A stretch of DNA of 64,000 nt, from positions 47,430,001 to 47,494,000 of the forward strand of contig OZ024748.1 in NCBI GenBank assembly GCA_964016885.1. Direction: 5' to 3'. Within the stretch, counting starts at the first letter, position 1. Each line of letters opens with the position of its first letter. The DNA is from Eledone cirrhosa (lineage: Eukaryota). The notes under the pieces are model-generated. The model did not search any database. It saw only the letters and a list, made by a program, of their open reading frames with translations, and had not been told where the DNA came from. Positions 48,366-49,388 of this stretch are shown piece after piece. The translations under genes and the position numbers were made by a program.

Positions 48366-48861
48366 GATATATATATATATATATATATATATATATATAT
48401 TAATATATATATATATATATATATATATATATATATATATATATATATATATATATATATATATATATATATATATATATATATATAAATATATATATAT
48501 AAATATATATAAATATATATAAATATATGTATATAAATATATATATATAAATATATATATATATATAAATATATATATATAAATATATATATATAAATAT
48601 ATATATAAAAATATATATATAAATATATATATATATATATATATATATATATATATATATATAAATATATATAAATATATATAAATATATGTATATAAAT
48701 ATATATATATATAAATATATATATATAAATATATATATATATATAAATATATATATATATAAATATATATATATATATATATATATATATATATATATAT
48801 ATATATATATATATATATATATATATATATATATATATATATATATATATAAATATATATA
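48366..48861. repeat. (TA)n/TAAA array abutting the PLE terminus
   Basis: Direct inspection. Confidence 0.95.
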
Positions 48862-49388
48862 GTTATATTTGGGGAGGGTCATATTTGCGTAATATTGCCA
48901 GAATTAATAACAGAACACACTCACTGTTTGGTTGGTTTTCGCTTCTCGCTGTCTTTTATATATATATATCTGCGATCTAACTTACTCGGTCCTCAATGTT
49001 GCCATTGACTGACCGGCGGTCAAAAATAATACAGATACAATATAGACAAACACATATATATATAGTTTACATAAATCTTTCGTTGCACATCTGCAACATC
49101 GTCAGTGGTGTTATATTCATTGTTCCTCCTGTTGTGTTGTATGTCTACGCCATTTTTTTTTTTTTTGTTCAGTCTGTCTATATATTTATTTATTTATTTG
49201 CTTGTTTGTTTATCTTATTTTATTTTGTCTTCTTTGCGCATGCGTTTGCGTGTGTGTATAGTGTTATGTGTGATGTGTGATGTGTGACTAGTGTGTATAG
49301 TGTTGTCTGCTGGGTGACTAGTGTGTGTTTATGTGCTTGTGTATGTATTTATTTATCTTATTTTATTTAATTTAATTTACTTATTTAT

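Follow-up and report, generated by a model that had tools for sequence, protein, structure and literature searches.

We interpret the boundary at position 48862, with a probability of about 0.6, as the ordinary 3' end of a very recent insertion of an endonuclease-bearing (EN+) Penelope-like element (PLE). An end inside the start of the open reading frame (ORF), a spacer that serves as both 3' and 5' untranslated region (UTR), an inverted arm, and (TA)n targeting are all known PLE features. Termination within the ORF start in particular is the signature of the PLE pseudo-LTR (pLTR) or tail (PMC2377424; also PMC3846280 and PMC8557442).

Architecture of the array and its terminus

The window (i.e., the whole 64,000-nt stretch of Eledone cirrhosa contig OZ024748.1 that was analyzed) contains a repeated unit of 4136 nt, which consists of a 3633-nt ORF and a 503-nt spacer. 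Self-comparison showed that the array is made of two divergent, head-to-head arms that meet at 55313. Its features are as follows (window coordinates, strand, description).

48367-48861, no strand: (TA)n tract, presumed insertion target; 495 nt, 99.6% A/T
48862-48882, minus: 3' terminus (pLTR or tail end), made up of the first 21 nt of the ORF of the element itself; putative RT start site
48883-49388, minus: terminal spacer (pLTR, i.e., 3' UTR plus 5' UTR) with an A14 run
49072-49105, minus: first copy of the minimal type I hammerhead candidate, with C3 at 49105 and cleavage predicted after 49072
49389-53020, minus: full-length ORF copy, frame shifted by a 1-nt deletion near 52324
53021-53525, minus: internal spacer with hammerhead copy 2 (53243-53210) and an A13 run
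53526-55313, minus: 5'-truncated ORF, beginning at unit position 1846, inside the RT
55313, no strand: inversion junction where the two arms meet head to head, overlapping by 1 nt without added bases and offset by 592 nt
55313-56508, plus: 5'-truncated ORF, beginning at unit position 2438
56509-57012, plus: internal spacer with hammerhead copy 3 (56790-56823) and an A12 run
57013-60645, plus: intact 1210-aa ORF, comprising an N-terminal helical region, an Asn-rich stretch, a telomerase-like RT, a Cys linker, and, at the C-terminus, a GIY-YIG nuclease
57709-58266, plus: in-frame Asn-rich stretch (aa 233-418; 84 of 186 residues are Asn)
59047-59259, plus: insertion of ~70 aa between RT motifs A and B' (telomerase IFD position); bounds approximate
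60241-60582, plus: C-x4-CxxC-x7-C linker and GIY-YIG nuclease with CCHH residues
60646-61148, plus: 503-nt internal spacer holding hammerhead copy 4 (60926-60959), an A11 run, a hairpin, and a TATA-like box
61149-64000, plus: further ORF copy, cut by the window end

The minus arm (55313 to 48862) spans 6452 nt, or 1.56 units, and the plus arm spans at least 8688 nt, or at least 2.10 units, from 55313 past the window end at 64000; together they place at least 3.6 seamless units within the window. One terminus is visible, and the right end of the plus arm lies beyond 64000. The copies are 99.9 to 100% identical. Comparison with a repeated-unit reference gave no substitutions over the ~15.1 kb of the two arms and six single-base indels, five of which fall in the spacer A-run (11, 12, 13, and 14 residues in the four spacers); the sixth is the deletion near 52324, which is either a mutation or a sequencing error.

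An earlier reading made from the sequence alone (the sequence-only reading) had treated the array as a single minus-strand one with internal junctions at 53020, 57013, and 61149. All three junctions do run on into the ORF, but only the first lies on the minus strand; the other two are on the plus strand and belong to the second arm. The three junctions have one distinct sequence over 400 nt. The terminal copy matches them exactly for 21 nt from its ATG at 48882, the last matching base being 48862, and at base 22 a TA tract replaces the ORF into which the internal copies continue. The same reading had stated that the array stops 21 nt into its own ORF and joins (TA)n, that the terminus has no poly-A, and that one ~500-bp spacer separates the ORFs, and these statements agree with the measurements (i.e., the exact 21-nt match followed by an A/T tract, no poly-A at 48862, and a 503-nt spacer), with the qualification that the spacer does hold an internal run of 11 to 14 A residues.

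Published PLEs provide parallels for most of this structure. The structure seen most often in Penelope has head-to-head arms that are truncated unequally at their 5' ends (PMC2377424; PMC8557442), and tandem and inverted copies, tails, and a (TA)n bias have been described (PMC8557442); how PLE tandems form is still open according to the same two sources. The pLTR may hold the first 12 codons, or 22 with the tail, and TATA boxes, microhomology at 5' junctions, and Asn-rich inserts also occur in PLEs (PMC3846280). The optional PLE tail is a segment of 30 to 40 bp between two RT start sites, so that, with one terminus visible, +21 may be either the pLTR end or the tail end. Primer-template microhomology at 48862 was unconvincing (i.e., a mismatched first base followed by four matching bases in TA-like sequence). 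A search around +21 for an AC-rich stem-loop like that of the anole PLE gave an AC content of 0.68, compared with 0.62 for the unit, and mixed pairing. Between positions 1 and 48800 of the window, searches for other copies or termini of the large element gave low-complexity matches only, and tblastn gave no match.

The ORF encodes an EN+ PLE protein

The element is an EN+ PLE, because a telomerase-like RT, a match to the Penelope profile, and an I-TevI-like GIY-YIG nuclease occur in one ORF. Such elements are easily missed, since the full 1210-aa protein had no Pfam match at an E value of 0.001. Pfam searches with nine proteins gave only subthreshold RT and GIY-YIG matches, and a PDB sequence search gave only weak matches to bacterial RTs. 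A protein search with residues 420 to 1200 recovered 109 relatives, the best of which (68% identity) is from Octopus vulgaris; another named relative is from a sea cucumber. A profile of 72 of these sequences aligned with one of 30 Penelope-group proteins (one of them from D. virilis) over 771 columns (probability, 100; E = 3.8e-42), at an identity of only 16%. The AlphaFold model of aa 421 to 1210 (pLDDT, 90.8) is closest to telomerases, which occupy Foldseek ranks 1 to 4 (Z = 10.4 to 11.3; rmsd, 3.7 to 4.9), and its C-terminus resembles I-TevI (Z = 10.2; rmsd, 2.1; 88 aligned residues).

In an alignment of 13 sequences, at least 90% conserve residues C1104, C1109, H1131, H1147, R1174, E1178, and N1190, and the nuclease R, E, and N residues are also conserved across 72 sequences. 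Among the 110 sequences examined, 57 could be scored with a regular expression for the linker; 36 of these carry C-x4-CxxC-x7-C, and all 57 have a spacing of 6 to 11 aa before the last linker Cys. A DKS motif is present in 73 of the 110. The Asn-rich stretch lies upstream of the RT core; the Octopus relative has a shorter low-complexity stretch, which most other aligned relatives lack; similar Asn-rich inserts occur in rotifer Penelopes at other positions (PMC3846280).

The remaining genomic features agree with this assignment. The RT is related to those of telomerase and Penelope, and the GIY-YIG domain with CCHH residues lies in the same ORF. The pLTRs are in tandem and partial-tandem arrangement, an inverted copy is 5' truncated, the end falls in the ORF start without poly-A, and the pLTR contains a minimal type I hammerhead motif as defined by a descriptor.

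An insertion at the IFD position of the RT

The intact ORF has 128 aa between RT motifs A and B'. This span is shared by the relatives (124 to 136 aa in 72 of 72 aligned sequences and 124 to 133 aa in the 89 scorable sequences among 101 first-search relatives, the other 12 not being scorable by regular expression). A profile search at E values up to 1e-30 gave 2910 representatives, and the 150 best were listed. Among 145 further representatives, the span was 117 to 153 aa in 71, and 74, many of them short pieces, were not scorable. In Penelope-group matches, the span is 57 to 60 aa (118 of 122; 4 not scorable), and in the profile alignment Penelope has one gap, of ~68 residues, at the site of the insert, which carries conserved residues. 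Of the 74 relatives that bear both motifs, 73 have the nuclease at the C-terminus. Tribolium TERT is not known to have an IFD; it aligned to the model over 367 residues, and the human, yeast, and Tetrahymena TERTs aligned over 356 to 364 residues, a comparison that gives homology between the insert and the IFD no support. Our hand counts from Fig. S1 of PMC8557442, for the rows covered, gave ~57 to 60 aa for Penelope, Poseidon, one Nematis row, and one Neptune row, ~80 aa for Naiad, and ~115 aa for human TERT.

At roughly even odds, these sequence comparisons may point to an undescribed PLE lineage in which a C-terminal GIY-YIG nuclease occurs together with a telomerase-sized insert in the RT fingers. 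Such a lineage is possible because canonical PLEs with a C-terminal nuclease are stated to lack the IFD (PMC8557442). The insert conflicts with the published split, in which the IFD is common to telomerase and N-terminal-nuclease PLEs only. If the lineage is distinct and the insert is homologous, it would bear on the order of IFD gain and loss between PLEs and telomerases. A literature search of titles and abstracts found no description of a PLE lineage in which a C-terminal nuclease is combined with an IFD-position insert. None of six short family motifs turned up in the portion of the PMC8557442 supplement covered, which holds gapped alignments. The relatives may already be catalogued as plain Penelope; a repeat annotation of O. 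vulgaris contains 31 recently active PLE families, 30 of them labeled Penelope and 1 labeled otherwise (PMC13282606).

The hammerhead candidate and other spacer features

The sequence-only reading had noted one hammerhead candidate per unit. A descriptor for minimal type I hammerheads reproduced this count, giving one match in each of the four spacers, on the sense strand only; counted from the ATG, C3 lies at -223 and cleavage is predicted after -190. None of 20,000 dinucleotide shuffles of the spacer matched the descriptor, and 1 of 2,000 shuffles of the whole unit gave a match when both strands were searched. The candidate has the canonical core, a 6-bp helix II preceded by one extra base, a helix III that is self-complementary and contains G-U pairs, and a 2-bp proximal helix I. 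Rfam reported no hammerhead at its gathering score, nor at E values up to 10 around the spacer or around the second motif (i.e., that of the miniature element described below); the miRNA matches in this search were rejected as AT-rich hairpin noise.

Helix II has a pairing probability of 0.8 to 0.87 in context, the monomeric catalytic fold costs 7.6 kcal/mol over the minimum-energy fold (-11.0 versus -18.6), and the predicted helix III of the dimer is weak (0 to -1.8 kcal/mol). The spacer as a whole shows no exceptional folding (z = -1.45). The candidate looks dimer-only in cleavage and is probably a weak, dimer- or protein-dependent ribozyme that is dispensable for this insertion.

Several other signals were observed in the spacer. 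AATAAA precedes CA and the A11-14 run by ~24 nt at 60840-60880 (plus strand) and in the other three spacers; the combination resembles a fossil polyadenylation junction, and it may reflect chance, given six AATAAA in the region. The stretch 61016-61110 (plus strand), upstream of the ATG, contains a stable hairpin at -133 (pair probabilities of ~1.0) and a TATA-like box at -78, as well as two hexamers, at -103 and -42, that resemble splice donors. An RNA that started near -48 would carry the hammerhead in its 3' part.

A miniature element and other repeats in the window

A small head-to-head palindrome with ~80% identity between its arms lies at 15723-15950. On the minus strand it carries a good type I hammerhead, with C3 at 15805, predicted cleavage after 15759, a helix I of 7 bp, and a helix II of 11 bp. 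The two arms terminate at the same base, and one adjoins (TA)14. Its last five bases are those at 48862, and there is no other DNA similarity to the large element. An 11-nt pattern of this end plus TA occurs only at these two places, and two matches were also obtained in 8 of 100 shuffles; we treat the shared 5-nt terminal motif as a lead only. The miniature is probably a nonautonomous PLE derivative. A common end of both arms is what fixed initiation predicts, and as a miniature of the same architecture it mildly supports fixed termini.

The window also contains degraded non-LTR (LINE-like) retrotransposon pieces at 26647-29801 and 32698-33213 (both on the minus strand), with one Pfam match to zf-RVT (E = 2.1e-08). 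A 106-nt repeat (80% identical) at 15547-15652 and 24295-24388 adjoins (TA)n at both sites and represents another TA-associated repeat family, and at 15967-16067 lies a short MITE-like element, flanked by TA, whose terminal inverted repeats are 42 nt long and imperfect. An identical 14-nt sequence precedes (TA)n at 44795 (plus) and 45635 (minus), on opposite strands ~840 nt apart, and this pair is possibly another inverted element in TA repeats. Minisatellites occur at 19986-21571 (period 48, 33 copies), 14380-14712 (period 110, 3 copies), and 42550-42979 (period 143, 3 copies).

Template and insertion mechanism

The template of the large insertion was most likely a linear, uncleaved, multimeric RNA. 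Because a cut monomer copied from +21 would yield only ~210 nt of cDNA, the template must have crossed hammerhead sites that were uncut or re-ligated; a ~210-nt product made from +21 on cleaved RNA would be a solo pLTR. A linear template is favored since the hammerhead is dispensable in vitro, since Naiads form tails and tandem and inverted arrays without canonical hammerheads (PMC8557442), and since minimal PLE hammerheads cleave poorly (PMC4209133). The in vitro evidence comes from an anole PLE, for which hammerhead mutants inserted equally well and RNA-seq contained no reads ending at the cleavage site (PMC11167929). In the same work, the protein nicked and extended both strands of AT-rich DNA, and its RT started internally on linear RNA at two ORF sites that match the genomic ends; the system used a short RNA and an element of the Poseidon clade, which is distant from the present lineage.

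By analogy with these experiments, the insertion probably proceeded as follows. The spacer promoter would drive a read-through RNA over several units of a tandem donor. The protein would bind this RNA near a downstream ORF start, and its nuclease would nick (TA)n. The RT would then initiate internally at +21, without primer-template homology, which would leave an end 21 nt into the ORF and no poly-A. It would copy back across the spacer and ORF for more than one unit on a template left uncut at the hammerhead. The second target strand would be nicked and extended likewise, and the two 5'-truncated cDNAs would be joined at 55313 into the head-to-head array.

Some observations count against a linear template. 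An arm cannot exceed its donor, and the donor of at least 2.1 seamless units must have been no shorter than that. With its palindromic form, helix III is well suited to cutting multimers into unit lengths, the conclusion draws on one visible terminus, and an alternative source of inverted junctions, self-priming on antisense RNA, has been offered (PMC3846280).

In a second proposal, which we consider unlikely, the multimer was cut as a dimer, the 4136-nt monomer was ligated into a circle (by an RtcB-like activity), and the RT rolled round it from +21. The idea of circular RNA was already proposed for PLEs by Cervera and de la Pena in 2014 (PMC4209133). It would account for scar-free arms of 1.56 and at least 2.10 units and would let an array grow without a long donor, and the self-complementary helix III with G-U pairs would fit dimer-only cleavage. 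Type I hammerheads are also present in small animal retrozymes, which do form circles and are believed to employ PLE proteins (PMC7229834; circles also shown in PMC7761336 and bioRxiv 2026.07.22.740005). The identity of the four hammerhead-site neighborhoods and the three junctions, like the absence of substitutions, is also in keeping with a circle; however, identical junctions and hammerhead sites fit a linear read-through RNA equally well. The sequence-only reading had argued from the terminus to a possible circular template. Priming at a (TA)n nick, a longer-than-unit template, and spacer hammerheads are all reasonable, but the terminus does not imply a circle, because an end in the ORF start is the published PLE signature and, in the one PLE reconstituted in vitro, is made by internal initiation on linear RNA. 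The +21 end sits 210 nt from the cleavage site and requires no circle, and the three considerations that favor a linear template, together with the weak dimer helix III, weigh against one. Our search by title or abstract start, with most subscription papers outside its coverage, found no report of a full-length PLE circle.

A broader version would join the undescribed lineage to rolling reverse transcription from +21 on a self-cleaved, re-ligated 4.1-kb coding circle, producing scar-free arms from both strands; we think this combination improbable. During repeat addition, the telomerase IFD contributes to holding RNA and DNA (PMC8557442), and given that role the RT insert might support long synthesis on a circle. 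A circle, if shown, would be the first that we could trace for an autonomous coding retrotransposon and would tie PLEs to retrozymes. The young array, whose ORF is intact, whose end is defined, and in which at least 3.6 units follow one another seamlessly, is well suited to distinguishing linear from circular templates.

It is similarly improbable that DNA-level events (i.e., unequal crossover or fold-back) or assembly errors and chimeric reads made the copy number or the inversion, leaving 48862 as the only true junction. An identity of 99.9 to 100% with only single-base indels, mostly in the A-run, is what polished or collapsed repeats look like, and PLE arrays trouble assemblies (PMC8557442). 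Against this, the head-to-head arrangement with unequal 5' truncation is the structure most often seen in Penelope, as noted above, and the junction, with its 592-nt offset and 1-nt overlap, is not a symmetric fold-back.

Template jumping, in which the RT reaches the 5' end of a cleaved or capped monomeric RNA and jumps onto another RNA, is known for non-LTR RTs (R2). It has been invoked for the Asn-rich inserts of PLEs (PMC3846280), and the sequence-only reading had offered it as a way to build the multimers; the A-run that differs in length in each copy and follows AATAAA, like a fossil poly-A, could be read in its favor. We regard it as very improbable here: jumps usually add or lose bases, all junctions and the four hammerhead-site neighborhoods are identical, and A-run differences of 1 to 3 nt look like homopolymer noise rather than fresh poly-A tails. 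Insertion into the element's own spacer is disfavored, as it would leave internal scars and none were seen.

Comparison with known PLE clades and retrozymes

As an EN+ PLE inserted most likely from a linear RNA, the element can be compared with several known groups. Animal non-LTR retrozymes also consist of tandem units with one type I hammerhead each, and a PLE origin has been proposed for them (PMC7229834). However, they are noncoding, ~170 to 400 nt long, and demonstrated as circles, whereas the present unit is 4136 nt long, coding, and equipped with a minimal hammerhead; we therefore rejected this assignment. Naiad/Chlamys PLEs share (TA)n targeting, tails, and tandem and inverted arrays with the element (PMC8557442), and in position the insert also corresponds to the IFD of these PLEs and of the telomerase RT. 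Their nuclease is N-terminal, whereas it is C-terminal here, which sets the element apart, and Naiads lack canonical hammerheads (PMC8557442).

Neptune and Hydra PLEs are alike in their C-terminal nuclease, linker cysteines, hammerheads, and microsatellite or (TA)n targeting (PMC8557442). Neptune was rejected on its long linker insert of ~25 aa before the last Cys (PMC8557442), compared with 6 to 11 aa here. Hydra PLEs have CxCX5C and DKT and lack CCHH (PMC8557442); the present protein has CCHH and DKS and a different linker, and it was not assigned to that clade. Nematis has a C-terminal nuclease and a short CX2-5CxxC linker with the last Cys ~7 residues on (Fig. S2 of PMC8557442), as found here. 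Its two RTs in Fig. S1 of the same source lack the IFD, with ~60 aa in the Caenorhabditis remanei row, compared with 128 aa in our ORF.

The Penelope/Poseidon clade (D. virilis Penelope and anole Poseidon_Ac) is alike in its single ORF with an RT plus a GIY-YIG nuclease at the C-terminus, its pLTR that serves as a shared 3' and 5' UTR, its end inside the ORF start, its tandem copies and inverted arm, and its AT-rich targets. The hammerhead candidate has the same shape as the variant of the D. virilis type (PMC4209133), i.e., a short helix I, a 6-bp helix II with an extra 5' base, and a small palindromic helix III. The hammerhead site lies 190 nt upstream of the ATG here, whereas it overlaps the ATG in the anole element. 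Moreover, the ORF is 1210 aa long rather than about 820 to 860 aa, and it has ~70 extra residues between motifs A and B' and a Cys linker before the nuclease; the presence of this linker sets the element apart from the Penelope/Poseidon clade.
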